Assembly: GCA_965153355.1 (NCBI GenBank) | Contig: OZ231126.1 | Location: 10,478,001 to 10,542,000 of the forward strand | Source of the DNA: Flaccisagitta enflata | Taxonomy: Eukaryota | Reading direction: 5' to 3' | Length of the DNA stretch: 64,000 nucleotides | Made by a program: the position numbers and the translations under genes | Shown here: positions 18,239-41,155 of the stretch, piece by piece | How the letters are laid out: each line of letters begins with the position of its first letter | Position numbering within the stretch: position 1 is the first letter of the stretch | Notes under the pieces: generated by a model | Database searches by the model: none | Told to the model about the DNA's origin: nothing | The model's input: the letters and a program-made list of their open reading frames with translations, nothing else

Positions 18239-18345
<107 letters not shown>

Positions 18346-19061: not shown

Positions 19062-20212
19062 TCAAGTGTTCGCCCAGGACATCGGTACTTTGGGGCCGCT
19101 GCCCAAAAAGGACATAGCTCAAGAAGAATAGAGAGTACGAAAGTCGCGCGCTTCATTCCACTGCACCTCGCTTTGTCCATCGGTCAGTTGGTCGATCGGT
19201 TGGTTGTTTTTTATTTATGTTTTTGCAATCTACGGCCTCGCTGCTCCCGCCTAAATGCTCTAGTGACCTCATAAACAGCCCTGCCCATCGGCACAAAACT
19301 TGGTTAGCCGTGTTTCGGGCCTTGTTTATCTGTGGGTACAGACAAAAAGAAATTTTAAGTCCTTTCATGCTTCCCATGCCTCCTCGCATTCATTCATTCA
19401 TTCATTCAGTCATTCATTCATTCATTCATTCATTCATTCATCCATTCATTCATTCATCAATTCATTGATTCAGTCATTCATTCATTTTTACATTCATTTA
19501 GTCATTCATTTATTCATACATCCAAATCTGTGTTGTACTCTCTTTTCCTTAGGGGTGGGAAATTCAATAAATTTTGTACATTTCTGCCTCTGCTAGATCA
19601 TGCAACTGGCCCTGCCCAATGTTCTTCTTTTGAAATGAGCCTGTATCCATCCCTGACAATGTCCCTAGTTACTCACATACGACTATGGTTGATCCCATTA
19701 TGTCCATTTTTGTGTGGCGATCTTGACTGATTAAAACAGAAATCCGCAGAAACAAGGCCGGATATACGGCCATCAGTTGCAGACGGGTGGGCAGGGGCGG
19801 AAATGCGCGTTTTCCCACTTTTCGACTCAATGGTTACGGACAGACAGACCGACAGACGGACGGACGGACTGACGGATGGACGGACGGACGGATAAAGCCT
19901 CTTATAGAGTTGCGTGTCCGCAACTAAAAAAGAAGAAAAAAGATGACACAATAAATTCATTGAGAATTAAGAATTTGCATAAAAAATGAGAAAATGAAAA
20001 AAACAAAAACATACCGGGCTAGCCATTTATCATAACAAGGCCGGTATATTTTTAGAAAAGCTAGTTTTTTCTTTATTTTTGCTATTCTTGATTCTCAAAA
20101 AAGAAAATGATATTGTCTAAAGCCTAATAAAGAGTGAGTACCTCACTCTGAAAATCCATTTATCAAATAAAAACAGCTCCCCACTGGTCAAATCTGAGCA
20201 ACAATGCTCTAT

Positions 20213-20729: not shown

Positions 20730-22813
20730 ATGCTCTATGACACATATTTATACTAATCCTACTTAAAAATCCTCATTTGTTGCTTGTTTGATAGCAATTC
20801 TAAACAATATTACAATTATTGTATTAGTTATCAATTTCTGAAGGCCACTAGGACATTTTCACTCCAGAATTTTCTTATGAGCATACTATTACCCCAAAAG
20901 CTTCCAGATTTTTTTCGTTGTGAAAATAAGCCAAAGATTAGCTTTAAGTCCCATCGTTTTCATACCGGAAGCGTTGGTTTTGTCAAATTGTTTCAGCAGC
21001 TTCATTGAAAAAACAGGCCAGGGAACTCATTTTCCTTCGTTTAAGGACATTTTCTCAGTGATTTTCACCCTTAAAACGTCATCACTCGCATCTGTTACCT
21101 ATTTTTGACTGTCGACGTATGATATAGCATTCAAATGATATGTGACCACACTCATGATTTGATCATATGCGTGAAAAAAATCACAACAGCCCATAGACAG
21201 TAGACGTCGGGAAATTATCAAAAAGTAGTAAACAACCCTCAACCACCGGCTTAAAAGATGACCAGATGTGTTGTTATGATATAACAATCAAAAAAAGTCC
21301 ATAACTTTTTATATCCTGTCAACGGAAAAAATAATGCGTCAAGGACTAAAAGCCAGAATAGATTGACCAAGTAATTTTCAAGATTCTTAATAAAATCTAC
21401 TTTTATACATGGATTAGAAGAGAAAATCTGAGCTGAATACCCTATGCCATCTAGTTTTCGATGAAGAATCCAAATTTTACGTCAAAAAACTTTTTGACGA
21501 CAGTAAATAGCAAAAAACTGACATCAAAATGGCGCGCGTCACTTCTGGTTAGCGGAAAAATATTTTTTGAGACTAAGCAAGTAGGAGCGCATGCTTAAAA
21601 GTGGATCAGAATGTATTTTCAGTCGTGTGCTACGCGACTCTACACCCCGCTTTGTCCGTCTGTCCGTCTATCCGTCAGTTGGTCAGTCAGTTGGTCCTCT
21701 ATTTTTTCCGAATTTTTGAACTTTTTTAGTTTTCTGCTCCTGCCTAAATACCTCAGTGACCTTTTTTTATCAGTGCCCCTGCCCACTTGCACGCGACTGG
21801 GCAGCCGTGTATCCAGCCTTACTCAGTAAAACACATTTGGTTTGGCTAAAAACGCTTTAAATCATGTTTTTTTTTTTTTTGTCATCTCGCTTCTCTTCTT
21901 GTCGCAACTGGCGTCCAAATGTTTTCTGCAGACTGCAATGCTTTAACCAGAAAGAGGCTCTGTCCATCCTCAACTAAAAAATGCTGCGAAGCTCTGTCTA
22001 TTCAAAAAGTGACGCGGGGTCACAATATCGTTGGGGACGGTGGGCAGGGGCATCCAGCCCCCATTAGGCTGGTCACGAAATAGGGTCAAATTTCAAAAAA
22101 TGATATACTCTAGTTTTTTGCATAAATGTACCAAAAAGAAGGTTTTCCCACAAGTAGAGGTCTGAATTTGAAGATTAAACCATGGCGGCAAAACTATAGG
22201 CTTCCTATGGCAATAAAAAAATCCCCATAGCAACCCTATAGTTTTGCCGACAAGGTTTCTTGTTTGATTTCACACCCCAGCTTTTGAGAAATCCTTCTTT
22301 TATTGGACATTTGTGCAAAGGGCTCAAGTATATCAATATATGAAATTTGACCCAATTCCGGACCACCCTAGCCCCCATCCACACCCCATGCCCCCCCAAC
22401 AACACGCATACCAAAAAAAATCAAAACGCTCGTTTTTTGGGCAGCGGCCCCGAAGGGACCAATGACCTATGCTCTCCTCCTTCTTTTTCTCCTCCTTCTC
22501 CGTGCCCCCCTCTGGCTTCAAAGCCTAAATTCTAGCCTAGATGCTCAAATTCTAAACCCAGGGCTCAAATCCCAGCTCCAAGCCTCCAATCTCAGCCCCA
22601 AGGCTCCAACTCCTGCCCCAATCCTAACCTCAAAACTCCAATACAAGCTTCATGGCTCAAATCCAGCCTCATAGCTCAAATCCCAGCATTGGGAGTCTTG
22701 TATCTTAGCCTCAATATTAAAATCCTTACCCAGCATAGGTCATCGGCTCCTTTGGGGCCGCTGCCCCTCTCACCTCCATATCTTACATATACTAACTTAG
22801 GGGCATCGGGTAC

Positions 22814-23493
22814 TGGGGCAGGGTATACCTAGTCGATCCATGAGGGAGGAGGCTATTGCCATTAATATGACCATTATATCCACCATGTCACCAATTCATG
22901 ACTACTTACTAACCTTGTTCCTTGTCCTTGTTCCTTATCCTTGTTCTTTATCCTTGTCCTTGATCGAACTATCCCTCAAAGGAGACCGGGTTTCCTTGCC
23001 CACAAGGAGTGTTTTTAGTGTAACTACGCCAAGTTAGCCTCTAAGGCAATTCACATCTGAGTGAAAGAAGAGGAACCTATGTAATTTACTACAATACAGT
23101 TGTTGCCTTTATTTAGAGAATACACACTGAATACTCTGACAATTGATGATGATACTTGAGGCTAAGGAGTGGGAGGTCAACAAGTGACTGTGTCCCTGAA
23201 CTTGGTGGACCCAAGCTGAGTGGCTAAGTTTTCCTTTGGATAGATCAAAACTACTAAATACTATCAAGCCACTAAGAGATGAGACCAAGAAATGGATATT
23301 TAACTAGTTTATCATCAATAAAACCATAAAACGATATAGCTATGAAAACTAGACAACAAGACGAGTAAGGGTAACTAGATAACAAACTAATAAATGTATA
23401 ACACAAAAACGTATAAGCCGATGAATGCTCATCGGCAATATGCAAATGAGATTTTTGTATCACTCCTCCATGGACCACTTACGCTCTGCCACA
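22814..23493 (-). repeat. 3' LTR (680 bp)
   Basis: Direct repeat of 40290-40970. By eye ~4 substitutions and 1 indel. Minus-strand AATAAA at ~23108-23113. Confidence 0.97.
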
Positions 23494-24122
23494 TATACGT
23501 TGGCCTTCCGGAAATAAAGACGTCCTCGTCGCAAAAACAAGAAAAAAAAAACGAAAAAGGAAGCTAGCCAGCCGTAAACACAACCACAAGGGCAGTGGCG
23601 ACCAACAGAGAGAAAAAAGAAAAGTCAAAAGAACGCACCACAAGATAACAAGAAAGGGAAAAAAAAACTAGGAAGGGAAATGCCGTAATCGCGGCCACAG
23701 GGACCGAGGCGACAAAACCAAGAAGAAAAAAGAAAAAAAAAAAAAGATGAAAGCGAGGACGAAAAAAAAACCAAACGAGCAAACACTTATACAGCTAAGG
23801 CCATAGAGAGCGTAAAGATCAACAATAGACGCAAAAGCGAACGTAGACAGGAAAAAGAATAACAGTAACATGATTAACTTGAAAAAGATAACACCAAACT
23901 CGTAAAAATCCGCAAAAGAAGAGAACAATCAGAAAATGAGAAAACGTCATCAATTTTTATGTAAAGAGAAGGAAATAAACAATAGGGACAGTTGTAGCGG
24001 ACGGGTGGGCAGCGGCAGAAATCCACGTTATTGTCTAAACCTTTCAGCACGAAAATTACGGACCAGCGAACGGACAGAGCCTCAAATAGAGTCGCGTGTC
24101 CGCGACAAAAAATCAATGACAA

Positions 24123-25429
24123 TTACTGAGACAGAGAAAAGGAATCAAGATGATCGTAAAACCTGACGAGCGTAACGTCGCTACCACGGGCGTAGATGAT
24201 TGAAAGTCCAAATGGTTCAAAACAGAAGGTCGGAATAACGAAGTCGACAAATTCGCAAAAACGGAGTCTCCTCTCACCTACAAAGACGAAGTGCGTACCC
24301 GGGTCACCGTAGTTGACGAACGCGTGGAAGAGAACATCTGAGGAAGTCGCATGGTGGAGCATGTTCGCCCTTATTCGCGGAAAACGGCGCGGAATACGAA
24401 TGTCTCCGAACCTCCGGCCAGGGTCGTCCATGATGATGCTGACGCCGTAGGAGCGAAGACTCTCATCCGCGTAACCGGCATTCTCAGACAAGGGCTTCTG
24501 AGCAATGAGGACGTGTGGATAAGCCAAACGTGGCTCAAGCAGATCCGACGGCGAAGCGACCAGGAACTTCTCGGTGATTTGGCCAGAAGGGATGTGATGG
24601 CGCTCAACCACGAAAGAACAATCGCGGTCGATGAGGAGCAGAAGACAGGCGCCGACAACGTTGTAGTCGTAAACGAAGGAGATTTGCCGACAGGCGCTCT
24701 GCGCGTAGGAGATATTCGTTGGGGTGGGATGAAAGTCGCCATGGCGGTTCAACGAATAAGCCACCAGAGCGTCAAATTCGACTATGTAAGTCGCGAGATA
24801 ATTTTCCGATTTCTTCAATGGACGTCTCATGGCCGGAAAATAACGTGGGACGACGGAGTCGACATCTGAGCGGTCGACCCAGTTGTGGATGTCGAAATGA
24901 TGGCGCCCCTCATCAACCGGAGGACGCAGGAAGAGGAAGTCGCCGTGGAGCACGATTTGGCGATATTGCTCTATCTCCGTATCGACAACGACAATTGCGG
25001 GACCGCCAAATTTGAGAAGAGAAAAAATCTCAATCTTCTTTGAGGTTGCAACTGCCATAAGAGAGGCAGTCGTATCTACCGAGATGCAGTCCACCACCGC
25101 AGGGAATGACATCGTGACTTCGGACGCCGAATCGGCTGAGAAGATTTGCGCTTTGATGGCGCAGTACTCAATATGAGCCTCACAAACCTTTTTCACTAGC
25201 ACATTCTGCTCATAAATTGATGGAACTTTTAGTGAGCGAAAGTGGGTAGGATCAATGGCATAAAGCTGCTGAGCTCTTTTAGCCAAAACTCCCTATTGGT
25301 GACAGCTTGAAGGTGGATATATTTGGAGGTAACCATAAGATTTCTGACGTCATCTACTGAAAGGTAGGAAAGAATGACCTCTGAAATGTCCTGATTTGGA
25401 AACGGGATTTTGCTGATTTCAATGCCCAT
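24123..25429 (-). CDS. Cargo ORF (~435 aa): N-terminal F-box plus beta-rich (propeller-like) C-terminus, split by a 1-nt frameshift at ~25277-25280
   Basis: PNQDISEVILSYLSVDDVRNLMVTSKYI...NREFW fits the F-box consensus. One extra A in the A4 run joins it to the 387-aa ORF (FWLKRAQQLY...). Confidence 0.7.
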
Positions 25430-26032
25430 GATTTGATTAGTACTGAACCGAATTTGTCTGATTAAAACTTAAATTTGATTTGACCTGAATAACTTGGAGA
25501 AAATAAAGGCAACAACAACTGTTTGTAAATATCGTAAACTTGAAAAGAAGATAAACCTTGGTCGGTGCCGAAGCAAATACTTGATGACGTAATAACTGGC
25601 GCGATCGCAAAAGACTTGATACAATAACAAAGGAGAAAAAAAATGATGTTTTACGTGATCGGTGTAAACGTAAGTAAGGCGTAAAGATGATGGAGGTAGA
25701 ATGGTTTTACTTTGGATGGTAAAAACGTCGGCCCTGGGTATCGAAACCACAGGGACCATCCAAAGTAAGGTCGTTATGTAAAAGTCGTAATCTTAATATT
25801 TTAAACTATATAGACTTACCAGAAAATGAGGAAAAAAAAAATGTCAAACCCATTAAACTCAAGAAGAGAGGGAGAGACGAGTAAAAAAAAGAGGATGAAG
25901 GTAAAAGAAAGAAAATGATAATGACCTAAATGTCTAAGCCCCATCATTCCAAGGCGGAGAGGCAGAGACGAGAAAAAAAAGAGATGTTAATGTTAGCGTA
26001 ATTATCACAAATGACACAAAAAAAAACATGAT

Positions 26033-29000
26033 TTACTTTTTCTTCAAAAAGTCTTTGCGATTTTTTCCCTTTCTGTTATAGACAATGTCGGTCGTAGCTT
26101 CAAGAGCCTTCTTCCATGAGTCTGTGCCAAAGAACTGGGTGGAGAAGTGATGAAGAAGATGATACTTCATGACCAGATGCTTCCTAGCCTCTAAAGAGAG
26201 TGAAGATTCGCGCGGAGACGCCAACGTGCGCCTGCAGAAGTCCTCTTTGACAACAGATTGCGCGAGAGAGTTGAAGTCGGATTTCATTCCAATTTGTGCG
26301 GCAAGTTGCGCATGATCCACCATTTTCTTGGGTGAAAAAGTGCCGTTGGCTTTTCTTATCAAGACTACTGTGTGCTTACCCATATGGACGTAGAGATTGG
26401 CCTTTTCTACTGCTAAAAAGAAGCCATTAACCTCCTTTTTGCCAATTTGCAAATCGTTGATCTTAAGGAGAAAGATGTGGTTTTTCACGAAAAAGACAAA
26501 ATGAATGACGTCACGGGTTTCAAATGCGGAATTGTTCTCTAACTGGCCCATGACGACAATTTCGGATTTCTCGACGTGACGCTGCAAGATCTGTAATTCA
26601 TCAATTTTCGTGACAACCATAATGGAGTGGTTTTCGCCAAATTTATGTAAAACCGGAGAATTACTGCATTGAACATGAACCCACGGAGTGTGGTGGGCCG
26701 CAAGAGGGCGCTTCTCAATCGGCGCACGGGTCATGAGGCTGAGAAAATGCGCTAACTCAGGAATTTCGATGTCGAGGTAAGAGACGATTTGGCGATTGAC
26801 GCGATCATTGGTACAAAAAGGATTTTGTAATTTCCTTCTTTGGCTAAGGGTCGTTACTTGTTTGCTTACGTGGTCCGGCGAAAAGTCAGCACTGAAAAAC
26901 TCGTCTTTTACAAGCAGAGGGCTGTCGGACGGCAAAATTCCATATTCTCTGATGATGTTCAATTTGTCGTCGTCGGTTTTGAAAGCAAAAGAAGTCGCAA
27001 AGGAAAGAAAGGCCGAGATTAATTCATCACCAAGGGAAGTAGTGACCAGTAAGAAGTTAGGTTGCTTCTTTACGCGGCAGTGGAGGATCAAAAATTCAGG
27101 TTGAATTTTGTCAAGAATTTCGCAACGAAAGAAGGTAAGAAGAGGATCAGAATTAAAGGTTTCATTTCTGACAAAGGCCTGAAAGAGCAACTTCCAATCC
27201 CAATTCAAACTGGCAACCGAAATCGCGACTTTGCCGACTCTGGACTTCAACTTCAAATCTTGTATTTTCCCGATGGTTTGAGCCATGGCATCGTAGACAT
27301 TTGGCGAAGAAGAGTGGCAAGAGTATTGAACAAAAGCGTCACTACAAGCATCATGTAAATTCCTGGCATCAATCAAACGGGAATAGATATCCTCTTTAAG
27401 GGGTTCAAAAGGCTCAGTGGCGTCGTCCAAAACATAAGAGTCTGAGGGCCCCAAGATTTCCGGGATAACACTTTGGTCTTCGTCCGGACCAGACCTCACC
27501 TGTTTCTCAAGCGTTGCGTCGCCGCGCTCAAAACTGCGGCGCTTGAGCAATGGAGAGGACAATTGAATCGGTTGTTCCTCAACAACCTCCTTACTGCTGC
27601 AAACTTTAAGATTTTTACCATTAACGAAGGCGGGCTGAGAGTCGGTGTAAATGGCATTACTGGGGTTCAAATCAACCAGAATATCGTCATCGGCGTGGTT
27701 GTCATTGTTACCGCTGATAATGACGTTGATAGGCTGGCCATCAATGATTGGAACGTCGGTGACCTTTTGAAACTCGGTGACGGCGGCGACGGCGACGGCA
27801 ATGGCGGTAGACTGAACCAAATCACCGCCATTGTTTTCCACACTTTGGTTTTTCTCAGAACTGACGCTGGCCTGAGCGGTGACAGAATCGTTTTTAACCT
27901 CGGCGGAATTTATATTTCTATCCCTAACCGATTCCACAATCATACCGGCGTCGCCGTTTGAGACGTAGTCAGGCACCAAAGATTTGTGAAAAGGCAAGGA
28001 CAGGTCGGCAACAACAAATGCATTAATTAGATTTTCATGATCAATGGTGATTGGGTCTAGATCGAGACCAAGTACAGGGAAGACGCCATCGTCGCAAAAG
28101 TGAATGGGCTGTGCAAATTTCGCGATGTCCCATTGGGTCCCGTCGATCAACTTATACTTATCCCAACCGGTTGAGTAAATGATTTGACCAAAGAAAACAT
28201 AAAGGATCAATTTGGGATCCGCCGCTGCATAACGGCGCATCTTTCCCGACCAAGCAGAGAGTTTCTGGTCCCAACGCGCCATTCTCGTCTCAACGTCCTT
28301 TTCCCAGATAATGGGGGTTGTTGGTGCGTGTGTGCCGAAGACGAAGTCGAAGGCGTCCTTGGCCGACCATGTACTTTTCTCCTTTGAACTTTGGGAATCA
28401 GTAGATTGGAACTCCCTGTTTTTTCCTGTCCAGACACGCATGGTTTTGTGAATGGAGGTGACGTCAATAATGGGGATGACGGCGTCGTTTAAGTGATACT
28501 GCTTGTTTATTATCCCTAATTCCACAAAAAGCGCCGCGTCACCTAGAATTACTGTGTTTTTGTCCGACATCAAATCCATGAATTTACCATGGAGGAACTT
28601 CTTCCTTCCCGCCGTGGCGTGTTTTGGCGGGTTTATTGCACAGAAATCCGTCAAGATAACAACCGTACGTACCAAATACCGATTGACACTGTAGGAGATT
28701 TGGATTACACAAACTTGATTTGGCTTTCCTTTGATTTGTTTTTGTTCAGTGTCGAGGGAAATGAAGTTTGTGAATCCTCGTTTCTCGAGCTCGCGGGATC
28801 TGTCGAGAATTTTCTGCATCTCGCTTGCAAGTCCTGCATCATCGTCGACGAAACTGACGGTTTCCATGTCAATTGGGAGGCGCCGTACTGTACCGGCTTT
28901 TACCAGTCGGTCTTCCCTTTCCTTCAGTAATTGGGCCTCTTTTTGTTTTTCACGTGTTTTCTCCCACTTTGTTCTTTGCTTCTTCCCGACGTAGCCCAAG

Positions 29001-29056
29001 TCAAACTCATTCATGACGGGAGACGGAGAACGCGAACCGCGACCGCCGGTTGCCAT
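26033..29056 (-). CDS. Cargo ORF (1007 aa): DEDDy 3'-5' exonuclease domain (RNase D/WRN/EXD/MUT-7 class) plus probable second degenerate exonuclease fold
   Basis: ExoI FISLDTE followed by VCVIQIS; LMSDKNTVILG; IDV; ExoIII RWDQ....MRRYAAAD. The C-terminal ~180 aa echoes the same pattern without acidic catalytic residues. Intact and intronless. Confidence 0.75.
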   Translation of the reverse strand: MATGGRGSRSPSPVMNEFDLGYVGKKQRTKWEKTREKQKEAQLLKEREDRLVKAGTVRRLPIDMETVSFVDDDAGLASEMQKILDRSRELEKRGFTNFISLDTEQKQIKGKPNQVCVIQISYSVNRYLVRTVVILTDFCAINPPKHATAGRKKFLHGKFMDLMSDKNTVILGDAALFVELGIINKQYHLNDAVIPIIDVTSIHKTMRVWTGKNREFQSTDSQSSKEKSTWSAKDAFDFVFGTHAPTTPIIWEKDVETRMARWDQKLSAWSGKMRRYAAADPKLILYVFFGQIIYSTGWDKYKLIDGTQWDIAKFAQPIHFCDDGVFPVLGLDLDPITIDHENLINAFVVADLSLPFHKSLVPDYVSNGDAGMIVESVRDRNINSAEVKNDSVTAQASVSSEKNQSVENNGGDLVQSTAIAVAVAAVTEFQKVTDVPIIDGQPINVIISGNNDNHADDDILVDLNPSNAIYTDSQPAFVNGKNLKVCSSKEVVEEQPIQLSSPLLKRRSFERGDATLEKQVRSGPDEDQSVIPEILGPSDSYVLDDATEPFEPLKEDIYSRLIDARNLHDACSDAFVQYSCHSSSPNVYDAMAQTIGKIQDLKLKSRVGKVAISVASLNWDWKLLFQAFVRNETFNSDPLLTFFRCEILDKIQPEFLILHCRVKKQPNFLLVTTSLGDELISAFLSFATSFAFKTDDDKLNIIREYGILPSDSPLLVKDEFFSADFSPDHVSKQVTTLSQRRKLQNPFCTNDRVNRQIVSYLDIEIPELAHFLSLMTRAPIEKRPLAAHHTPWVHVQCSNSPVLHKFGENHSIMVVTKIDELQILQRHVEKSEIVVMGQLENNSAFETRDVIHFVFFVKNHIFLLKINDLQIGKKEVNGFFLAVEKANLYVHMGKHTVVLIRKANGTFSPKKMVDHAQLAAQIGMKSDFNSLAQSVVKEDFCRRTLASPRESSLSLEARKHLVMKYHLLHHFSTQFFGTDSWKKALEATTDIVYNRKGKNRKDFLKKK

Positions 29057-30067
29057 AGTGAGAGATGATGGTGAGAAGAAGAAAAAGAGGAAATGAAATG
29101 GGAAAGAGATAACGGTCTACGCCACAAACCCCAAGACGGAGAGACGCAGACAACAAAAAAAAGGAAAAAAAAGAAAGCGTAAATGTTAATTAGTAGGATG
29201 TGATGAAAGATAGGAGATGATGAGAAAAAAAAGGGTTTACCAAGGAAAATAAAAATGCGATGGGAGAAACTAGAACGATGTTGAACTTTAATAAGATGAA
29301 AAATGCCGAAGCCACTAATTCCAAGACGGAAAGACAACGGCCAGATAAATAAGAAAAAGAAAAAAGAGTTTTCGGAGAAAAACCTTTAATGGGATGAATA
29401 GATGATAGAAATGAATAAAAAAGTACGAAAAAATTGATGGGAAAAAGATGATGAGAGAAACGTAAGAGAAGGAGGGAAGATAGGCAGTTGGCGGTATTAG
29501 AATGAAAGTTATCACGTGACGACTATCACTAGTTGACTATCACAGGATGAGTATCACATAAAGACGTTAGGAAGTGATTTTTATTGGGTTTGACTTATTA
29601 CGGCCTTATATTATCGACGGTTCTAATCCTGGCAGTCAATTTCTGCTACCGTCCGTTTCACTCAAGTCCGGGCTTCACTGGTCGACATCCTACACTACGG
29701 ACTACTACTACTATGGATCGATGATGAAGAGAGAGAATGGAGTGATAATCCATTGTGTTTGATCGTGAATTTTGAATTTTATGATGTCGTTTTGTGTAAC
29801 TATTCACGATTAGTGGCGATTTTAAGAGGATTTGATTCGGTCCCTGACAGACGTGATTTTGTCGCGTGAAAGCGACCGAGAAAAATAAGTTAATCTGCGC
29901 GACTTACTTATCGGAATTTCTCATCTTTCAACCTGTGCAAAGGGAAACAACAAGACTCAGAATGAATTCAACTGCAGATTTGTTGCCGATAAAATTGATT
30001 TCCCTTTGGCCGATAAAAGTGAAAATATATAAAAACCAATACAAAGACAATGTGAGCATCGCGATTT

Positions 30068-31432
30068 CTATTTTGGCGTGCTCGCTTTAGGACAGAACAT
30101 GTCATCATCATCGTCAAACGAAGTTTCTTCTCGATCATCACTTTCCTCCTTTGGAACGTAGGGTGTTGCCACTTCTAGTGATTGGAACATGTCAGACTCG
30201 AAACCCGTTTCATCGGCGTCTGCTTGAGCTTGAATGGCGCAAGTGTTAATCTTTTTGCAAATGTTTACCATCGAAGTCGTGGGCGCCTTCCGTTTTGATG
30301 ATTTGCCTTTCTTTGGCTTTTGCTTCGCTGGCTTCTCAGCTGAGTCGGGCTCAGCCACTTTTCTCTTCCGGAAGTTGTACTGCGTTTCGCCACCATCGGA
30401 ACGAGGGGACAGATTCGGATCATCGGTAAGGATAACTGTGCTATGAATAGCGTGAGAAGCGCCCGGCTGTGCATTTTGAGCAAAATCGGCTAAAGTTTCA
30501 TTTTCATCAAAATTTGACTCAGGATATAAGGCTTCCTGGTTAGTTTGGACCAATAGATCAGGTCTAGGCATTTGAGTAAAAATGTGCGGGTTTGTACTAG
30601 TGATTGTCTGAGGCGAAATACGCAAATGACTGGTTGCTGAATTGTCCGGAGGGAATAAGAGTGATGAGTGGGGGGTTGGAGAAAGAGATGGTAACGAAAG
30701 AACAGGTCTGGATGCGGGTGGCGTTGCCAGGTGAGAGTGAGGAAGGACAGTAATATCTAGAGTTGTCTCAGAGGCAGGTGTTGGAGGTGGGGGATTCGGG
30801 CGGTCAGCGTCTGCCGGTTGAATGATTGGTGTTGTTGGAGGTGTCGGAGTTGTAGACGAGCGATCGTACGACAACAATGAACTGAGCAGAAAGGCTTTAG
30901 ATTTTGATCTAGTCATGATTTCATTGTTAGGGTCTACAGGTGTAACTGAGTCAGGTGCAGCAGATGCAGGGGCAGAAGAGCGTAGGATAGATTTGTGCGC
31001 TTTCTGAGGATGTAAAGGAGCAGAGCCCAGATTATTTGATGGATGCTGTACTGCGGGAGGAGCGAGAGGAGGAGCAGGAGGATGAAGAGGAGGAGCAGGA
31101 GGAGGAAGAGCCTTTGAAGGAGCGATAATCTGCTGAACAGTGTAGGGTTTAAGATGGTTGTGGTGTTTTGTACAAGAGGTGCCAAACTGGTCCTGACAGG
31201 TGTAGTTGACAGTGGCCTCATCGAGCCTTGGGATGACTTCTACCACTGTTGAGGGCCCGTCCCAATTGGGAGTGAGTTTGAGAGGGACATTGCGTGGCTG
31301 AAATTCCCATACATCGTCACCAGCCTTATAGGGGACGTATTTGGCTTGCTTGTCGTAGTTTGTTTTCTGCCTTTCCTGTTCTTTCTTCATTTGCTCCTGC
31401 ACCAGCAGAATAGCCTCGGTTTGCTTGCCACT
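30068..31432 (-). CDS. In-frame continuation of Pol after a TAG: integrase GPY/F module plus long Pro/Ser-rich, basic and acidic tail
   Basis: Same frame as pol. QERQKTNYD..YKAGDDVW..KLTPNWDGP..HHNHLKPY is the standard Gypsy integrase C-terminal module. Confidence 0.85.
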   Translation of the reverse strand, partial: SGKQTEAILLVQEQMKKEQERQKTNYDKQAKYVPYKAGDDVWEFQPRNVPLKLTPNWDGPSTVVEVIPRLDEATVNYTCQDQFGTSCTKHHNHLKPYTVQQIIAPSKALPPPAPPLHPPAPPLAPPAVQHPSNNLGSAPLHPQKAHKSILRSSAPASAAPDSVTPVDPNNEIMTRSKSKAFLLSSLLSYDRSSTTPTPPTTPIIQPADADRPNPPPPTPASETTLDITVLPHSHLATPPASRPVLSLPSLSPTPHSSLLFPPDNSATSHLRISPQTITSTNPHIFTQMPRPDLLVQTNQEALYPESNFDENETLADFAQNAQPGASHAIHSTVILTDDPNLSPRSDGGETQYNFRKRKVAEPDSAEKPAKQKPKKGKSSKRKAPTTSMVNICKKINTCAIQAQADADETGFESDMFQSLEVATPYVPKEESDDREETSFDDDDDMFCPKASTPK

Positions 31433-34400
31433 CTAGGAATTGACGTAGTCCCTCACCGAGAGTTTGGCTTCAGGAGATGGTAAAATGCCATCAATTGGAA
31501 GAGTGGGTTGGAAGCCATAGAGAACAAAGTAAGGAGTTTGACCGGTGGTGGCATGCACAGTTGTGTTGAAGGCATACTGTAGAAACTTAAGCAGGTCAGG
31601 CCATTCCTCCTTGGTCTCCAAGATGCGTTTTGTTAGTTCGCTGATGATTTGACGATTTTTGTTTTCCACCACCCCTTGAGATTGGGGGTGGTAGGGAGTG
31701 CTGGAAGACTTCTTAATTTTGAGATATTGGCAAAGGGCGTTGATGATGTCGTTTTGGAACTCTCCTCCGTTATCGCTACTGAATGACTCAGGTGGCCCAT
31801 GGCGCAGAGAGAAGTCCGTAAGGCAGTCAACAATGGCAGTGGCGGTTTTGGAGCGAGAGGGGTAGAGTTTGACCCATTTGGAGAATAAGTCCACAATTAC
31901 AATGACGTAACAGTAGCCTTTGCTAGAAATGGGCAGTTTAAGGACATCAGCCATCACGCGTTGGAAGGGTCTGGAGACCTTGATGGGAACCATGGGAGCC
32001 TTATTTGGAGGGTTAGGTTCACGAAGGCACTGGCACTGCATGCATTTTGATACGAACTTTTCAATATCACTCCAAAATGAAGGCCAGATGGCATAGTTTT
32101 TGACCATGCGAACCATCTTGTCTTTCGAAGGATGACCTACAAGTGGACCACCATGAAGGCTCTGAAGAACCTCTTGAACCATCGTGGGTGGGACAATTGC
32201 TTGGAGAATTGTGCCATGGAAATCATCTGTCTTTGCTGCGCGGTAGAGGACACCTTTTTTGAGACGGAGGTGAGGATAATGCTTAGCATACCAAGGATCA
32301 TTGATCGCGCCTTCGTCAGGTCTGAGACGCCTGTGTTTGAGTTTTTGTTCAATGACAGAGAGGATGGTGGGGTCGTTTCGTTGTTCCGCCACAAGTCTTT
32401 CTTCCTTTTCTTCCTCACAAAAGATTGAGACCAAAGGAGCTTCGGAGATGTCCAATGCTCCCAAGCAGTAAAGGTTATGATCATCAGATGCCATAGTAAG
32501 GTCAATGAACTCTTGTTCGTCCCAGTTTTGGTTCTCAAGTGCCATGGAGCAGAAGAAACTGGCAAAGTGTTCGTCTAGGCCATCAGGAATTTCAACATCT
32601 TCTTCATCTTCCATGGGGCGGCGGCTCATGGCATCAGCATCGGAGAGTTTGGCGCCTGGGACATAGACGAGTGTGTAATGGAAACTGGCCAGAAAGATCT
32701 TCCAACGGTTTCTTCTGCCATTTGGGTCATCAGTGTTTGGGTCAGGTTTCTTAATGGAGAGAAGAGGCTTATGGTCCACGATGGCTACAAAATGGGAACT
32801 AGCCAAGAAGTGGCGGTAGGTTTTCACCCAATTGTAGAGGGAAAAGAATTCGCGATCGAAGACCACCCAGGAGCTTTGACGGTCAGTAAGCTTTCTAGAA
32901 TCGAAGCAGATGACGCGTGTTAAGTCATCATGGATCTGTTGGAGGACACATCCAATGGCGATAAGGCTTGCATCAGTTTTGAGAATGAATTCCTTGGAGA
33001 AGTCTGGAACTGCAATGACAGAGTCAGAAGTGACCGAACCAACAAGCTTGTCAAAAGCTGATTGACATTCTGGAGACCAATGAAAAGGGACATCTTTCTT
33101 GGATAAGTCTGTAAGAGGAGCGGCGATATGAGAGTAAGACTTGATAAATTGGCGATAGAACGAAACAAGTCCGAGGAAACCTCTGGTTTCCGTAAGATTC
33201 TTAGGTACTGGCCAACTGAGTATTTTTGAGATGTTATGGGGGTCAGGCTTTAAACCGCTGGCAGAGAGGAGGAATCCAAGAACAACGACTTCCGTCTGAC
33301 AAAATTTTGATTTTTCAGGGTTTAATTTTAACCCAGCACTCTCTAGGGCAGAGAGGACCTCGTCGAGTAGATGGAGATGATCACGATACGTCTCCGACGC
33401 CATCAATATGTCGTCGAGGAAAGTAATCAGGAAGCGAGGGTCAAAGTTACGAAAAGTGATTTGCATCAAGGCATTCATGGAGGAAGTTGCGTTTATTTCC
33501 CCCTGCGGGCACCTGGCCATTTGCCAGTGCCGCGAGGGGGTACTAAACGCATAAAATTTCCTATCGCATTTAGCGATAGGTATCTGGTGGAAACCAGAAC
33601 TCAAATCGGCCTGAGAGAAGATGGAGCCTTTGACCCGGTGTAGACAATCTCCAATGTGGGGCATTGGGAAATGCACCCGCTCTGACATGGCATTGAGTCG
33701 TCTGAGGTCAACAACAAATCTCGAGAGCTCGCCATTTTTTTTCGGCACCATCAGCACTGGAAAATTGTAAGGGCTGTCGCTGGGCTCAACAATGCCGTCG
33801 CGGTGCATCTGGTCTACTTGGCGCTCGATGATCTCAGCAATCTGAGGCGTGGTGCGGTACTGAGGAACGTTGATGGGAGGACCAGGCTTGATGCGACAGA
33901 AATGTTTAAGCAGGGTGGCCTCACCCAGATCGCTTTTAGTCTTAGAGAAAGCTGTTTCGTGTTTCACTCTAAGAAGATGGTCCAATTTGGCGGGATCTTC
34001 TCCAGGAGGAATTTTGGCATCAGAAAGGTCCAATATCAATGGTCTAGTTGCATCATTAGGATCCGGAGCTTTAACAACACGTGGGATGGACCGTTTTCCT
34101 TTGGCGGCACAGAACTGTGAATCAGAGTATAGGCAGAATGAATCAGAAGGAAGCTCAGGTCGAACTGGAGAAGGAATTTTGTCAATCGCCTCAAAAACGC
34201 AAAATGCGCTGTCTAGTTGGTCGTTGCAAAATTCAAAGGTTGCCAATGGAGTTCTGGCTTGAATGACCGCCGGAGTGGGAAGGGTGTTGAAGACTTCACA
34301 ATGGGCAATGCCATGATTAACGGATGAGAGAGAATAGCCAACAAGGACGCCATCAGCTGGGCAGTGATCGAGGTAGGGCATAGAGAATATCGTAGAAGAG

Positions 34401-34975
34401 CCAGAATGCTGCAGATAGGCTAGATCAGCGTGAATATAGGCCTTTATAGGCATTCGCGACGTGGGAGGGATGACCACCGATTCGAAGGCTGTGAGATGAG
34501 GAGGATCAGGAGATTTCTCCCTCATGATGAAGGGAGTAGAGATGCCTTTAATGGTGAGATTATTTGACTCTAGGTTAATGATTGCTTTTCTGTTACAAAG
34601 AAAGTCCCAACCAATTACGAGTGGTCTTACAAGACCGCGCATAATTCTACAATTAACTAGAAAGTTTTGACCAGAGATCGAGAATGGCAGTTCAAGCAGT
34701 CCAAGGGTGACGACGTCGTTTCCATTGATAGAATGCCCGACGTCAGTTTGGGCTGAAAATCTACATTTCTGTAGGAAAGGACATTTCTGCACCTCCATTT
34801 CAGATATAAGGCAGGTGGAGCAGCCAGTGTCGACGAGAGCTGAGACGGTACGCTCACCGATGGAAACTTGTATTTCTGCAAAGATGTCTGGTTTGGGTTC
34901 CTGACTGAGTTGAGCCTTTGGTTGAGTTTCACCGACACACTCCCGACTCACGGAGGTGTCTGCATTTAAAAATCC
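31433..34975 (-). CDS. pol: Pol: aspartic protease, RT, RNase H, integrase (entered by -1 frameshift)
   Basis: ALVDTGCS; RFVVDLRRLN, DLSSGFHQI, FLDD; LKTDAS/DRE/DHKPL/ADAMSR; H-H-CxxC; MAD..SDNGGEF..VE. Frame stays open upstream of the GTG to the slippery site. Confidence 0.95.
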   Translation of the reverse strand, partial: GFLNADTSVSRECVGETQPKAQLSQEPKPDIFAEIQVSIGERTVSALVDTGCSTCLISEMEVQKCPFLQKCRFSAQTDVGHSINGNDVVTLGLLELPFSISGQNFLVNCRIMRGLVRPLVIGWDFLCNRKAIINLESNNLTIKGISTPFIMREKSPDPPHLTAFESVVIPPTSRMPIKAYIHADLAYLQHSGSSTIFSMPYLDHCPADGVLVGYSLSSVNHGIAHCEVFNTLPTPAVIQARTPLATFEFCNDQLDSAFCVFEAIDKIPSPVRPELPSDSFCLYSDSQFCAAKGKRSIPRVVKAPDPNDATRPLILDLSDAKIPPGEDPAKLDHLLRVKHETAFSKTKSDLGEATLLKHFCRIKPGPPINVPQYRTTPQIAEIIERQVDQMHRDGIVEPSDSPYNFPVLMVPKKNGELSRFVVDLRRLNAMSERVHFPMPHIGDCLHRVKGSIFSQADLSSGFHQIPIAKCDRKFYAFSTPSRHWQMARCPQGEINATSSMNALMQITFRNFDPRFLITFLDDILMASETYRDHLHLLDEVLSALESAGLKLNPEKSKFCQTEVVVLGFLLSASGLKPDPHNISKILSWPVPKNLTETRGFLGLVSFYRQFIKSYSHIAAPLTDLSKKDVPFHWSPECQSAFDKLVGSVTSDSVIAVPDFSKEFILKTDASLIAIGCVLQQIHDDLTRVICFDSRKLTDRQSSWVVFDREFFSLYNWVKTYRHFLASSHFVAIVDHKPLLSIKKPDPNTDDPNGRRNRWKIFLASFHYTLVYVPGAKLSDADAMSRRPMEDEEDVEIPDGLDEHFASFFCSMALENQNWDEQEFIDLTMASDDHNLYCLGALDISEAPLVSIFCEEEKEERLVAEQRNDPTILSVIEQKLKHRRLRPDEGAINDPWYAKHYPHLRLKKGVLYRAAKTDDFHGTILQAIVPPTMVQEVLQSLHGGPLVGHPSKDKMVRMVKNYAIWPSFWSDIEKFVSKCMQCQCLREPNPPNKAPMVPIKVSRPFQRVMADVLKLPISSKGYCYVIVIVDLFSKWVKLYPSRSKTATAIVDCLTDFSLRHGPPESFSSDNGGEFQNDIINALCQYLKIKKSSSTPYHPQSQGVVENKNRQIISELTKRILETKEEWPDLLKFLQYAFNTTVHATTGQTPYFVLYGFQPTLPIDGILPSPEAKLSVRDYVNS

Positions 34976-38690: not shown

Positions 38691-38956
38691 ACGCGGATTT
38701 TTAGAGCAGAGACTGAAAGTTAGAGGACTAAGTGCGGCCAGGCGGCGCGCGGCCCTGCTAACCAAGAAGGAGTGATTTTGTATAAAAATAGAATTTTGTA
38801 AAATCATTTACCATCGTGTGTAAAATGGTAAGATAGTGTGTTCTTACGAGGCAACGAAAAATGATTGCTAAAATATGGAAGCTAATTGCTATTAATTAAT
38901 AATCCGCGAATTCTCGGAGCTTAGGCTCTTTTTGGTTACAAAATTTAACTTTGTAC

Positions 38957-39124: not shown

Positions 39125-40277
39125 GATTAAATTCGAGTTTGGAATCAAGTATCAACTGAAATATGAAGGCACTCTTGAATTCGGCTGTTTTATCGGCGAT
39201 TATCGGCAACAACCAGGGATACGGAGGAATTAACAAATGAGTCCCTAGAGCTGACTTGGCGGTAATGAATTAAAGTTGCAACGGTACTAGATGAATTAAA
39301 TGTCGTAGCCAACGGGGCAAAAGAACGGAGCCTTCTTAATTTTTACCGCAAAAAAAAAAAAAAGGAATAGGAGACTTGGCAGTGGTGTTGTAATTAAATG
39401 AATCAAATTGCTGAGAATTTATCACACGTGTTCTAATTTTACCGACGATAAACGGAGCAGCACTCGGTAATTATCTAAGAAAAGAATCCCGTCCTCATTT
39501 TGCAGTCTGCACACCCCATGATGTGTTGCATGGGAAATCACTAGTCTTACAAAGTACAACAAGATAATTAGACTGGACGATGACGGTGGGCAGGCTCGCA
39601 GATAAAGACACCGGGGCGTTGTATTGTATGTATTTTGGACGTCCTTGTGAATGTGTGGCATCCCCCAGCAAGGCAAAGACTTCACCCATGCAGCAGAAGC
39701 GAATATGCGCGCATTTCGCCGTGCAACCCCCGCCAGGAATCCGGCCAATAAGGTAGGCACGACGACGATTACGAAAACGGACGACGAGACTGGCAACGTC
39801 CAATGCCAGATCTGCAAAATTTGAATGAGAAAAGTCTCCCCTGAGATCCGACTGTACAAGTACTCAGAGGTTCAGAATAAAGAACGATGGTGGCCATTCA
39901 CACATGGGCATGAACTTTTATCAACTTCTCCCCTGCCACAGGATTCCCGAAGAAGAGCTTAACCAAGATTACCGGGGAAACGGCGGAGATAACTGTCATT
40001 ACCTTGAGCTTTTTCCATTTATCGCGGGAAATGAAAATCGAAATTCTTGAGTGGGAAATCTCTTGGCTCCGACGATAGCTTAAACCGAAATAACGAAATG
40101 GTTCTTACCAAACCGCGTTGGCTGAAGATTGGAAACAAAAGCTCGCATAAAATAACTTAGGTTCAGTGGCATGAGTAAATTAACAGCATCGGTGGTGAAG
40201 AGAATCATTACAGGCTATGAAACCAGACACGCTTAGCGGCCCTCTGTTCGGGTGCTTGCACACTGAGTGCAATCCTG

Positions 40278-40287
40278 CGATGCACCA
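40278..40287 (-). promoter_or_regulatory. Primer-binding site TGGTGCATCG, complementary to the 3' end of tRNA-Gly(GCC)
   Basis: 2 nt from the 5' LTR. Complements ...CGATGCACCA-3', the invertebrate tRNA-Gly(GCC) 3' end as recalled. Confidence 0.85.
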
Positions 40288-40289
40288 AA

Positions 40290-40970
40290 TGGGGCAGGGT
40301 ATACCTAGTCGATCCATGAGGGAGGAGGCTATTGCCATTAATATGACCATTATATCCACCATGTCACCAATTCATGACTACTTACTAACCTTGTTCCTTG
40401 TCCTTGTTCCTTATCCTTGTTCTTTATCCTTGTCCTTGAACGAACTATCCCTCAAAGGAGACCGGGTATCCTTTGCCCACAAGGAGTGTTTTTAGTGTAA
40501 CTACGCCAAGTTAGCCTCTAAGGCAATTCACATCTGAGTGAAAGAAGAGGAACCTATGTAATTTACTACAATACAGTTGTTGCCTTTATTAAGAGAATAC
40601 ACACTGAATACTCTGACAATTGATGATGATACTTGAGGCTAAGGAGTGGGAGGTCAACAAGTGACTGTGTCCCTGAACTTGGTGGACCCAAGCTGAGTGG
40701 CTAAGTTTTCCTTTGGATAGATCAAAACTACTAAATACTATCAAGCCACTAAGAGATGAGACCAAGAAATGGATATTTAACTAGTTTATCATCAATAAAA
40801 CCATAAAACGATATAGCTATGAAAACTAGACAACAAGACGAGTAAGGGTAACTAGATAACAAACTAATAAATGTATAACACAAAAACGTATAAGCCGATG
40901 AATGCTCATCGGCAATATGCAAATGAGATTTTCGTATCACTCCTCCATGGACCACTTACGCTCTGCCACA
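40290..40970 (-). repeat. 5' LTR (681 bp)
   Basis: TG...CA ends; followed on the minus strand by TT and the PBS. Confidence 0.97.
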
Positions 40971-41155
40971 GTACCGCTGACCATCTTACGCTTTTGCGAC
41001 TATTCCACTTTTTGACACATGCATTACGGACTGACGGATGGACGGACCAATGGACAGACGGAGCTCTTATAGAGTTGCTGTGCGCAACTAGATAGCAGAT
41101 GAGGAATACAAAGACATATTCCTAGTTTCTTTTTACCTTTTCAAAAGAGATAGAG

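Follow-up and report, generated by a model that had tools for sequence, protein, structure and literature searches.

To our knowledge, accessory enzymes are rare in retrotransposons. DEDDy exonucleases encoded by a third open reading frame (ORF3) have been reported in the LTR retrotransposons Juno and Vesta and in the Athena/Terminon Penelope-like elements of bdelloid rotifers (Rodriguez, Kenefick & Arkhipova 2017, PMC5408684), and in the literature searched, DEDDy exonuclease ORFs of retroelements were described only from such bdelloid elements. Inactive versions of the same fold have been described as well. Both Egalitarian, in its exonuclease-homology domain (ExoHD; PDB entries of the 9rv and 9rw series; PMC13186709), and EXD1 (PDB entry 5fiq) have a DEDD fold that lacks the catalytic residues and is involved in RNA binding. 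According to the available parts of the Egalitarian study, the exonuclease-homology domain contributes to the RNA-binding pocket; it binds the ILS of the I-factor, i.e., an RNA signal of a retrotransposon (PMC13186709).

The 64-kb stretch of DNA analyzed here (the window) contains a complete, recently inserted Ty3/gypsy-type LTR retrotransposon of 18.2 kb, whose third gene, ORF3, encodes a DEDDy exonuclease domain together with a dead DEDD fold. Third ORFs of the DEDDy type were thus already known in retroelements, as far as the available text of the bdelloid report goes (PMC5408684); what is new is the different element lineage and the architecture of the protein. Set beside each other by published description, ORF3 and the bdelloid ORF3s have several properties in common: an RNase D-like DEDDy exonuclease encoded by an extra ORF downstream of pol, an intact ExoI, no coiled-coil or transmembrane features, and a function that is putative in both cases. 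The third acid of the bdelloid proteins is reported to be E (DEED), and the ExoII column of ORF3 likewise contains E179. In contrast, all Juno, Vesta, and TelKA families are reported to have a dUTPase between PR and RT, which is absent from the pol described here, and the LTRs of the bdelloid elements measure a reported 159-551 bp vs. 681 bp in this element. Furthermore, the ORF3 protein has a helical domain and another DEDD fold, which is dead; the available parts of the report mention neither for the bdelloid proteins (PMC5408684). ORF3 represents the same solution in another lineage of elements, without dUTPase, with longer LTRs, and with DNA that is also present in marine metagenomes, and in a new architecture, in which a helical domain connects a live exonuclease to a dead one. 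This design bears on the use that retroelements make of exonucleases, i.e., in 3'-end processing, proofreading, or anti-silencing.

The host element

The genes of the element are all located on the minus strand, with gag followed by pol in the order PR-RT-RH-IN according to Pfam (Table 1). Together with the paired LTRs, their TG..CA ends, and the target-site duplication, this anatomy is that of the Ty3/gypsy type. The LTRs are 99.27% identical over 681 aligned bases (blastn of both flanks). The sequence of the putative tRNA primer-binding site is unique in the window, where none would be expected by chance; no tRNA genes were found in the window, so there is no match for it there. Gag showed a weak match to Retrotrans_gag (E 5.9e-4; 20.5 bits vs. 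a cut-off of 24.1), and pol matched RVT_1 (1.8e-25), RT_RNaseH_2 (1.7e-26), rve (2.9e-15), and Integrase_H2C2 (1.1e-13). Between PR and RT, where no dUTPase was found, there is a spacer of 283 aa without a Pfam match at E<=5.

In this copy, pol is interrupted by an in-frame stop codon. The 444-aa ORF that follows in the same frame, in which a Pfam scan revealed no match, is, judged from its sequence, the C-terminal continuation of the integrase with a proline-rich tail. Because of the in-frame stop, this particular copy of the element may be inactive. The last gene, ORF4, yielded no Pfam match and no PDB sequence match. Much of the length of the element consists of leader repeats and extra ORFs. 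Codon usage of ORF3 and pol correlates with r 0.77, a value that is confounded by amino-acid composition. The CIP2A-like neighbor of the element had no usable match in an Atlas search.

Table 1. Features of the retrotransposon and of ORF3, in positions of the window.
Feature	Position	Strand	Basis or remark
Target-site duplication GTAC, 4 bp	22810-22813 and 40971-40974		flanks read directly
5' LTR	40290..40970	(-)	TG..CA ends; blastn of flanks
Putative tRNA primer-binding site	40270..40287	(-)	2 nt inside 5' LTR; coding strand TGG...
gag, 520 aa	34966..36528	(-)	weak Retrotrans_gag match
pol, 1172 aa	31433..34951	(-)	protease, RT, RNase H, integrase zinc and core domains
444-aa ORF	30068..31402	(-)	pol frame, after one in-frame TAG; frame arithmetic and translation across stop
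ORF3, 1007 aa	26033..29056	(-)	intact open frame; third gene of element
N-terminal DEDDy 3'-5' exonuclease domain, aa 63-365	27962..28870	(-)	PF01612, fold matches
ExoI, D102-T-E104	28745..28753	(-)	codons of SLDTE; kept in 7/8 rows
ExoII region, D173 and E179	28520..28540	(-)	D173 after strand beta4; E179 in first turn of next helix
ExoIII, Y276-AAA-D280	28217..28231	(-)	YAAAD codons
Acidic low-complexity linker, aa 366-559, pI 4.2	27380..27961	(-)	composition
All-helical domain, aa 560-785	26702..27379	(-)	AF2 model
C-terminal DEDD-fold pseudo-exonuclease, aa 786-993	26078..26701	(-)	AF2 model, fold matches
Basic C-terminal tail, aa 994-1007, pI 11.3	26036..26077	(-)	composition
ORF4, 387 aa	24123..25286	(-)	last gene before 3' LTR; no recognisable family
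3' LTR	22814..23493	(-)	blastn partner of 5' LTR

Domains of the ORF3 protein

ORF3 is an accessory gene of the retrotransposon, and the reading frame of 1007 codons given for it in the original prediction is indeed present on the minus strand. Its product consists of an N-terminal exonuclease domain, an acidic linker, a helical domain, a C-terminal DEDD fold, and a basic tail; the protein is basic at both ends, with a pI of 10.5 for the N-terminal tail.

An N-terminal DEDD domain, with SLDTE of ExoI near 28750 and YAAAD of ExoIII near 28220, had been predicted from the sequence. Both motifs were found at the codons given in Table 1. PF01612 is the only Pfam family matched by the ORF3 protein. 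The N domain scored just under its gathering cut-off of 23.6 bits (23.0-23.4 bits; E 5.7e-5) and the whole protein also under it (19.4 bits), and in a scan of the N domains of the family, 5 of 12 rows were matched at E<=0.1, with a best E of 3e-9. Foldseek identified the EXO domain of Nibbler as the best match (7jw2_B; E 6.8e-8), and structure alignment (VIA) gave Z scores of 16.3 to Nibbler 7jw6 (207 aligned, rmsd 3.7), 15.5 to WRN 2e6l, and 15.2 to RNase D of T. brucei; these fold matches rest on a weak AF2 model of the domain, with a mean pLDDT of 55.7. With RNase D, Rrp6, and WRN (PF01612), the domain shares the fold, the DxE of ExoI, the Yx3D of ExoIII, and a 'C-V-x-Q-I-S' strand after ExoI. 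Unlike these proteins, ORF3 has no HRDC domain, scores below the Pfam cut-off, and contains, between ExoII and ExoIII, a long inserted segment (aa ~205-270) with a pLDDT below 50. A non-significant alignment (E 0.74) of relative P0001 with Rrp6 places DTE on DLE of Rrp6.

In the model, D102 and E104 of ExoI are located in a strand (aa 97-106), and Y276 and D280 of ExoIII in a helix (271-294). Eight relatives extend over D102 and E104, and each of these residues is conserved in 7 of them; Y276 is conserved in all 6 rows and D280 in 5 of 6. ExoII, which could not be clearly identified by eye in the original prediction, still has no canonical form, but the alignment provides two candidates, E179 or D173. 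The former is part of the opening turn of helix 176-187 and is displaced by one residue from the D that most relatives carry; its alignment column has D in four rows and E in two, i.e., an acid in 6 of 9. The latter is a lineage-specific inserted residue, which is present in 3/3 rows carrying the inserted column. Since the close relative P0010 has a K at the ExoII position and relative P0032 has lost ExoI, ExoII, and the Asp of ExoIII, exonuclease activity may be dispensable in parts of the ORF3 family. In the protein described here, the N domain is probably still able to trim single-stranded RNA or DNA from the 3' end, because the metal-binding residues of ExoI and ExoIII are retained and an acid is present at or near ExoII.

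The low-complexity linker and the helical region that had been noticed behind this domain were both recovered, the former as an acidic segment and the latter as a domain that is folded into 13 helices in the AF2 model, where most blocks of 10 residues have a mean pLDDT of 86-96.

The C-terminal segment had been described as RNase D/MUT-7-like without catalytic acids on the basis of the strings IMVVTKIDELQILQRHVEKSEIVVMG, MVD, DFNSLAQSVVKEDFCRR, and LSLEARKHL, which are all present in the ORF3 translation, and the analysis led to the same description. Foldseek matched the segment to a DEDD exonuclease at E 5.8e-6, with the EXO domain of Nibbler as the best structural match. In structure alignments (VIA), Z scores of 19.1 to the Drosophila Nibbler EXO domain 7jw6 (196 aligned, rmsd 2.9), 18.1 to E. 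coli RNase D 1yt3, and 16.4 to Rrp6 3saf were obtained; the pLDDT of the AF2 model of the C half is 84.4. Hence, both segments of the protein that were examined for a DEDD fold match DEDD exonucleases and have the DnaQ/RNase H-like fold, the C-terminal one that of the RNase D branch. No acid is found at the catalytic positions, which are occupied by G837 and L839 (ExoI), V898 (ExoII), and H960...K964 (ExoIII), equivalences that are based on secondary-structure register and the family alignment and not on superposed coordinates. Within the family, the position of the ExoI Glu is hydrophobic in 11/11 rows, that of the ExoI Asp is D/E in 4 of 11, and the ExoII position is D in 3 of 14. A Pfam scan of 21 C-domain rows yielded a single match, that of P0001 to PF01612, which has the same E (3e-9) as in the scan of the N domains and which we take to be its N domain. 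Because the catalytic acids and a Pfam match are missing, the domain is filed as a pseudo-exonuclease and not as an enzyme. It is basic (pI 9.2) and contains the conserved residues W792, C797, H804, D914, H915, E938, C941, R943, T944, S947, P948, and H960; the Cys/His/Arg motif among them is its own, as compared with Egalitarian and EXD1. The dead module is also seen without the N domain in the predicted proteins P0005 and P0034. These may be incomplete predictions on contigs that are short; should they be real, they would point to an RNA-handling module that is mobile and can be reused.

The original prediction spoke of a probable dead second copy. The second DEDD fold does lack the catalytic acids. 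Its origin by internal duplication is no more than possible: comparison of the trimmed family profiles of the N and C domains with hhalign gave an E of 0.39, with one local alignment that pairs both ExoIII regions. The fold shared by the two models is compatible with duplication or separate capture. Complex prediction of the N domain with the C half, which was run without alignments, gave a score of 0.00 and no verdict.

Nibbler has a helical domain at its N-terminus, before the EXO domain. The resemblance to MUT-7/EXD3 that had been noted for ORF3 holds for structure, since the EXO domain of Nibbler (7jw2, 7jw6) is the best structural match of both ORF3 domains and the helical-then-EXO order resembles the C half of ORF3, but it does not extend to sequence: PDB sequence and profile searches revealed no similarity to Nibbler/MUT-7. 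Moreover, the EXO domain that follows the helical region of ORF3 is the inactive one, and ORF3 is borne by an element and is not a host gene.

Relatives of ORF3 and sequence variation

A phmmer search of 1.84 billion representatives identified 33 relatives of ORF3 at E<=1e-3, 24 of them at <=1e-10 and 11 at <=1e-30. Open frames and motifs are retained in relatives at 22-72% identity, and because of these relatives and the motifs kept in them, the pattern in ORF3 is more than chance. The whole architecture is present in one relative, of 835 aa. All relatives with a visible source are from metagenome assemblies and are proteins without a name. Three of them, P0024, P0026, and P0028, were excluded from family alignment A2, as their non-matching parts look chimeric or frame-shifted. 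A word-indexed protein search with the whole ORF3 protein found nothing; with alignments A2 and A1, it found 5 and 3 proteins, respectively, all from ENA assemblies and none of them named. In a PDB sequence search, there was no match for the ORF3 protein or profile A1, and one chance match (E 0.33) for profile A2. JGI metagenome contigs, searched with the single protein and with a four-row alignment, yielded 51 and 199 pattern matches, respectively, with 0 confirmed relatives. Rotifera proteins were found as protein-language-model neighbors at 0.86-0.87, which is below the 0.9 mark and only a lead toward a kinship with the bdelloid ORFs. In a viral structure library, the matches were confined to exonuclease domains of the polymerase-A type and exonucleases of giant viruses, at E 1e-4 or weaker, and they are no closer than those in the PDB.

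Nine variants in ORF3 were listed from a DNA run, six synonymous and three non-synonymous, a small sample compared with the 148 more across the 13.1-kb stretch. Among the variants listed, all three non-synonymous ones, as well as a 6-bp in-frame deletion, fall in the linker. DNA of the element also occurs in a marine metagenome run. No RNA run is listed as containing it. In the one poly-A RNA run from that study, ~6% of the run yielded 0 reads, which is no test of expression. Possible copies without the cassette of ORF3 and ORF4, i.e., the joint from 24112 to 29154 and two others, were not counted as evidence. Since the joints skipping these ORFs are located in purine-rich low-complexity DNA and the short side of the joint from 24112 to 29154 measures 22 nt, they may be assembly artefacts.

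Possible roles of the ORF3 protein

On balance, we lean toward an accessory role of ORF3 as a 3'-5' exonuclease whose dead domain is a nucleic-acid-binding module. Regarding catalytic activity, RNA binding, and substrate, we infer the following from sequence and models. Module 1 (aa ~63-365) would belong to the RNase D/WRN/Nibbler branch of DEDDy 3'-5' exonucleases, and module 2 (aa ~560-1007) would consist of the helical domain followed by the basic, acid-less DEDD fold with its conserved Cys/His/Arg/Asp motif. The latter most likely serves in nucleic-acid binding or targeting, like the inactive folds of Egalitarian and EXD1. Within the element's ribonucleoprotein, module 2 would deliver the active nuclease to a defined substrate, the 3' ends of RNA or cDNA of the element itself.

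Alternatively, both DEDD folds might be non-catalytic, and ORF3 might be an RNA-binding or transport adaptor for the RNA of the element, comparable to Egalitarian, EXD1, or Maelstrom. The non-canonical ExoII, with its K in P0010, the loss of all motifs in P0032, the two basic ends of the protein, and the Z scores to Egalitarian (15.1 for the N domain; 13.0 for the C domain) and EXD1 (13.0 and 13.7, respectively) are consistent with such a role. Yet, the conservation of D102, E104, Y276, and D280 described above is hard to explain without catalysis, and the bdelloid ORF3s, in the available parts of the report, have the DEED variant with the invariant residues intact (PMC5408684). We consider an adaptor without catalysis rather unlikely. 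An unlikely role, too, is counter-defence, with the protein as a mimic of Nibbler/MUT-7. Host piRNAs or siRNAs directed against the element, or their precursors, would be trimmed or destroyed by the active domain, while the dead domain would sequester them or dock on Argonaute/Piwi complexes as a decoy. The position of the Nibbler EXO domain at the top of the structural matches of both domains and the helical domain preceding the C-terminal fold point in this direction, but Nibbler, RNase D, Rrp6, and WRN differ by only 1-3 Z units, which shows no specific kinship to Nibbler, and the sequence searches contained no match to Nibbler/MUT-7. Mature piRNAs are, in addition, 2'-O-methylated and resist 3'-5' trimming. 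A mut-7-like silencing role was raised by the authors of the bdelloid report, who, in its available parts, also argue that a self-limiting element would not persist (PMC5408684). We regard it as quite unlikely that the element specifies a mimic of the small-RNA trimming machinery of its host, with a live exonuclease that destroys or over-trims silencing RNAs or their precursors and the basic, Cys/His-bearing dead fold as a decoy or docking module for these RNAs or for Argonaute/Piwi complexes; if it did, an animal transposon would encode a suppressor of RNA silencing.

As a further alternative, the exonuclease might proofread in trans, removing 3' mismatches left by the RT of the element and thereby allowing faithful copying of an unusually long element of 18 kb. 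The nsp14 ExoN of coronaviruses is such a proofreading exonuclease, and PF01612 also covers the proofreading domain of family-A polymerases. The carriers of DEDDy ORFs include, besides the long element described here, giant Terminons of up to 40 kb, as far as the available text of their description goes (PMC6431247). However, Juno and Vesta of bdelloids have DEDDy ORFs and are not described as giant, and the leader repeats and extra ORFs account for much of the length in the present case; we consider proofreading very improbable. Similarly, we give little credence to ORF3 being a neutral passenger, i.e., a captured host gene that is decaying and has no role for the element. Such a fate would fit with contig joints in one DNA run that would remove ORF3 and ORF4, and with the bdelloid families, where, in the available parts of the report, copy number was not clearly linked to ORF3 and no departure from neutrality was seen within a genome (PMC5408684). 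On the other hand, the joints may be artefacts, all 1007 codons of ORF3 are open, and the motifs of both domains are kept in relatives down to 22-32% identity. Furthermore, the variants listed in the folded domains are synonymous in all five cases.

A retrotransposon ORF3 pairing an active-looking DEDDy domain with a DEDD fold that lacks the catalytic acids

ORF3, the third gene of an LTR retrotransposon, encodes two DEDD-fold domains, both conserved in its family: a DEDDy domain in which catalytic residues are conserved, and a second one from which these are missing. The original prediction described an ORF with an active-looking N-terminal DEDDy domain followed by a probable dead second copy. 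The observation was confirmed: the ORF is open throughout, and the C-terminal strings that were quoted are all found in its translation. As far as predicted fold and aligned residues go, its interpretation is supported too.

In the N-terminal domain, the SLDTE and YAAAD motifs supply D102 and E104 of ExoI and Y276 and D280 of ExoIII, respectively. The only Pfam match of ORF3 is DNA_pol_A_exo1 (PF01612), whose cut-off of 23.6 bits is missed both by the whole protein (19.4 bits) and by the isolated domain (23.0-23.4 bits). The same profile matches five of the 12 rows of the N-domain family at E ≤ 0.1 (best 3e-9). An AlphaFold model computed from 12 aligned rows has a low overall pLDDT of 55.7, although most 10-residue block means lie between 71 and 92 in residues 11-140. 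With this weak model, Foldseek found Aedes Nibbler EXO (E 6.8e-8), and VIA matched Drosophila Nibbler EXO (Z 16.3, 207 residues aligned, rmsd 3.7), WRN (Z 15.5), Trypanosoma brucei RNase D (15.2) and Egalitarian (15.1). Both ExoI acids are present in seven of the eight relatives that cover them, and in the six rows covering ExoIII, Tyr is invariant and Asp is found in five. The ExoII column, represented by E179 in the first turn of helix 176-187, is mixed (D in 4/9 rows, E in 2/9, another residue in 3/9); D173, inserted nearby, is also carried by the three closest rows. One relative, P0032, lacks ExoI, ExoII and the Asp of ExoIII. Thus, with ExoI and ExoIII conserved and ExoII variable, the domain is active-looking, as had been predicted, with ExoII in question. 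For the bdelloid rotifer ORF3s, a change of DEDD to DEED is reported (PMC5408684), which agrees with the Glu at the ExoII place of ORF3.

The C-terminal half (aa 560-1007) gave a good model (21-row alignment, pLDDT 84.4), in which residues 8-217 are all-helical and residues 252-434 have strands and helices arranged as in RNase D-type exonuclease domains. Foldseek matched it to Nibbler EXO (E 5.8e-6), followed by Rrp6, RNase D, WRN, EXD2, EXD1 and Egalitarian, and VIA, run without Foldseek, to Drosophila Nibbler EXO (Z 19.1, 196 residues aligned, rmsd 2.9), Escherichia coli RNase D (Z 18.1), human RRP6 (16.4), WRN (14.3) and EXD1 (13.7). When the catalytic positions are assigned by secondary-structure register, the ExoI strand VVMGQLE has G837 and L839 in place of D and E, the ExoII helix GKHTVVLIRKAN has V898 in place of D, and the ExoIII helix KHLVMKY presents H960 and K964. 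Among 11 family rows, the ExoI Glu position is always hydrophobic and the ExoI Asp position is D or E in four; the ExoII position is D in 3/14 rows, and a Pfam search of the family's C domains yielded no match for any of them. Conserved instead are W792, C797, H804, D914, H915, E938, C941, R943, T944, S947, P948, H960 and W981. With pI 9.2, the C domain is basic and its tail, at pI 11.3, strongly so; the linker has an acidic pI of 4.2. Hence, the dead second copy is borne out in its DEDD fold and in the loss of the catalytic acids. It may or may not be a duplicate of the N-terminal domain: a profile-profile comparison of the two gave E 0.39, although its sole local alignment pairs the two ExoIII regions.

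A word-indexed search with the ORF3 protein returned no relatives. With an exhaustive phmmer search of 1.84 billion representatives, 33 proteins emerged at E ≤ 1e-3, of which 24 reached ≤ 1e-10 and 11 ≤ 1e-30; the best-matching stretch lies in the N-terminal region in 11 and in the C-terminal half in 22. The 835-aa relative P0001 (32% identical, E 4e-94) is the only one that matches ORF3 in three stretches, and the alignments place its DEDD domain, low-complexity linker, helical domain and C-terminal domain in the same order. Of the remaining relatives, most are short and fragmentary. The N-terminal exonuclease is missing from P0005 (559 aa) and P0034 (464 aa), which comprise the helical and pseudo-exonuclease domains. 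They may be partial gene predictions on short contigs; otherwise, the dead module might also occur as an ORF of its own. All relatives for which a source is shown come from ENA assemblies, none of them named.

The retrotransposon and its copies

Both LTRs start with TG and end with CA, a 4-bp GTAC duplication lies on their outer flanks, and all internal genes are on the minus strand (see table). Together with the gene order, these features identify an 18.2-kb Ty3/gypsy-type retrotransposon, which is young and structurally complete; cargo is a fair word for ORF3. The 444-aa ORF behind the TAG carries on the C-terminal part of the integrase and has a long proline-rich tail at its end; in this copy, the integrase may be truncated, or the TAG may be read through. 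ORF4 matched nothing in Pfam or among PDB sequences and is a second cargo gene of no recognisable family. The 18-nt sequence next to the 5' LTR is a plausible primer-binding site.

Features of the element and of the rest of the window (positions within the window)
Feature	Position	Strand	Description
5' LTR	40290-40970		Direct repeat; 681 bp aligned with 3' LTR, 99.27% identity
Putative primer-binding site	2 nt inside 5' LTR		18 nt; coding strand reads TGG...
Leader minisatellites	37190-38552		Three adjoining arrays: 11-bp unit x31, 14-bp x42, 10-bp x42
gag	34966-36528	minus	Retrotrans_gag match, weak
pol	31433-34951	minus	Protease, RVT_1 (1.8e-25), RNase H (1.7e-26), integrase zinc and core domains
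444-aa ORF	Behind single in-frame TAG, 31433-31435	minus	In pol's frame; from frame and translation
ORF3	26033-29056	minus	1007 aa
ORF3 ExoI (D102, E104)	28745-28753	minus	In SLDTE
ORF3 ExoIII (Y276, D280)	28217-28231	minus	YAAAD
ORF4	24123-25286	minus	387 aa; between ORF3 and 3' LTR
3' LTR	22814-23493		Direct repeat
Short repeats	15744-15833, 18162-18271, 19852-19941, 38613-38702		(ACGG)n, then tail
CIP2A-like ORF	9278-10966	minus	562 aa
Satellite array	42526-64000		Unit ~381 bp

Contigs of a DNA run labelled as single-organism covered all 30 bins of the internal 13.1-kb stretch, with 452 pieces at ≥ 99% and 588 at 95-99% likeness, and a marine metagenome run covered 28 of the 30. This coverage, with pieces in both likeness classes, indicates a family with multiple copies that have diverged to some extent. 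In one DNA run, three contig joints (24112/29154, 23623/29079 and 23539/29176) link the region just upstream of the ORF3 ATG to that just downstream of ORF4, so that both cargo ORFs would go. The DNA there is purine-rich and of low complexity, and one side of 24112/29154 measures 22 nt; the joints are therefore perhaps assembly artefacts. An interspersed short repeat, (ACGG)n with a conserved ~45-bp tail ending in CTAAAAA, occurs four times, once in the leader of the element.

Precedents and proposed role

As a precedent, the DEDDy-type ORF3s of bdelloid rotifers come closest; they are described from the LTR retrotransposons Juno and Vesta (PMC5408684) and from Athena/Terminon elements (PMC5408684, PMC6431247; briefly mentioned in PMC6338049). 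No further retrotransposon with a DEDDy or other exonuclease ORF came up in a literature search that did not extend to most subscription journals. Unlike Juno and Vesta, the Flaccisagitta element has no dUTPase. Its LTRs exceed the range reported for the bdelloid elements in the accessible text (PMC5408684), its DNA is present in a marine metagenome run, and its ORF3 is set apart from the bdelloid ORF3s, as there described, by the tandem of a live and a dead domain with a helical domain. As a lead only, the protein-language-model neighbours of ORF3 lie in Nematoda (0.90) and Rotifera (0.86-0.87). An accessory DEDDy gene in a retroelement is of a known kind and the tandem version with a helical domain is new, its role being predicted from sequence and fold.

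The N-terminal domain would be a metal-dependent 3'-5' exonuclease acting on single-stranded RNA or DNA, and the helical and pseudo-exonuclease module would bind nucleic acid and supply the target of the enzyme. In solved examples, inactive exonuclease folds act as RNA binders: in Egalitarian, the exonuclease-homology domain helps to form the pocket in which localisation stem-loops sit, including one of the I-factor retrotransposon (PMC13186709). We consider it somewhat probable that ORF3 is an accessory nuclease that has its own binding module and processes the 3' ends of RNA or cDNA of the element itself. That ORF3 is an RNA adaptor inactive in both domains is unlikely, and that it is an anti-silencing mimic of Nibbler, to which both halves were matched, is quite unlikely. 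Proofreading in trans for so long an element is a very improbable function.

A neutral passenger is equally improbable. Relatives 22-72% identical to ORF3 have open frames and kept motifs, and among the nine single-base variants listed in ORF3 from the single-organism run, a small sample with 148 others across the 13.1-kb stretch lying outside the listing, six are synonymous and three non-synonymous. The linker holds all three of these, as well as an in-frame deletion of 6 bp.

Other features of the window

The CIP2A-like ORF matches the CIP2A N-terminal domain (E 2e-12), lies in a GC-rich island (0.47-0.50) within surroundings of 36% GC, and is probably an exon of a host gene. A satellite array of at least 55 copies, spaced 340-409 bp apart, takes up the final 21 kb of the window; many of the copies are 95-100% alike, and the base composition is very even (GC 0.36, GC skew -0.15).
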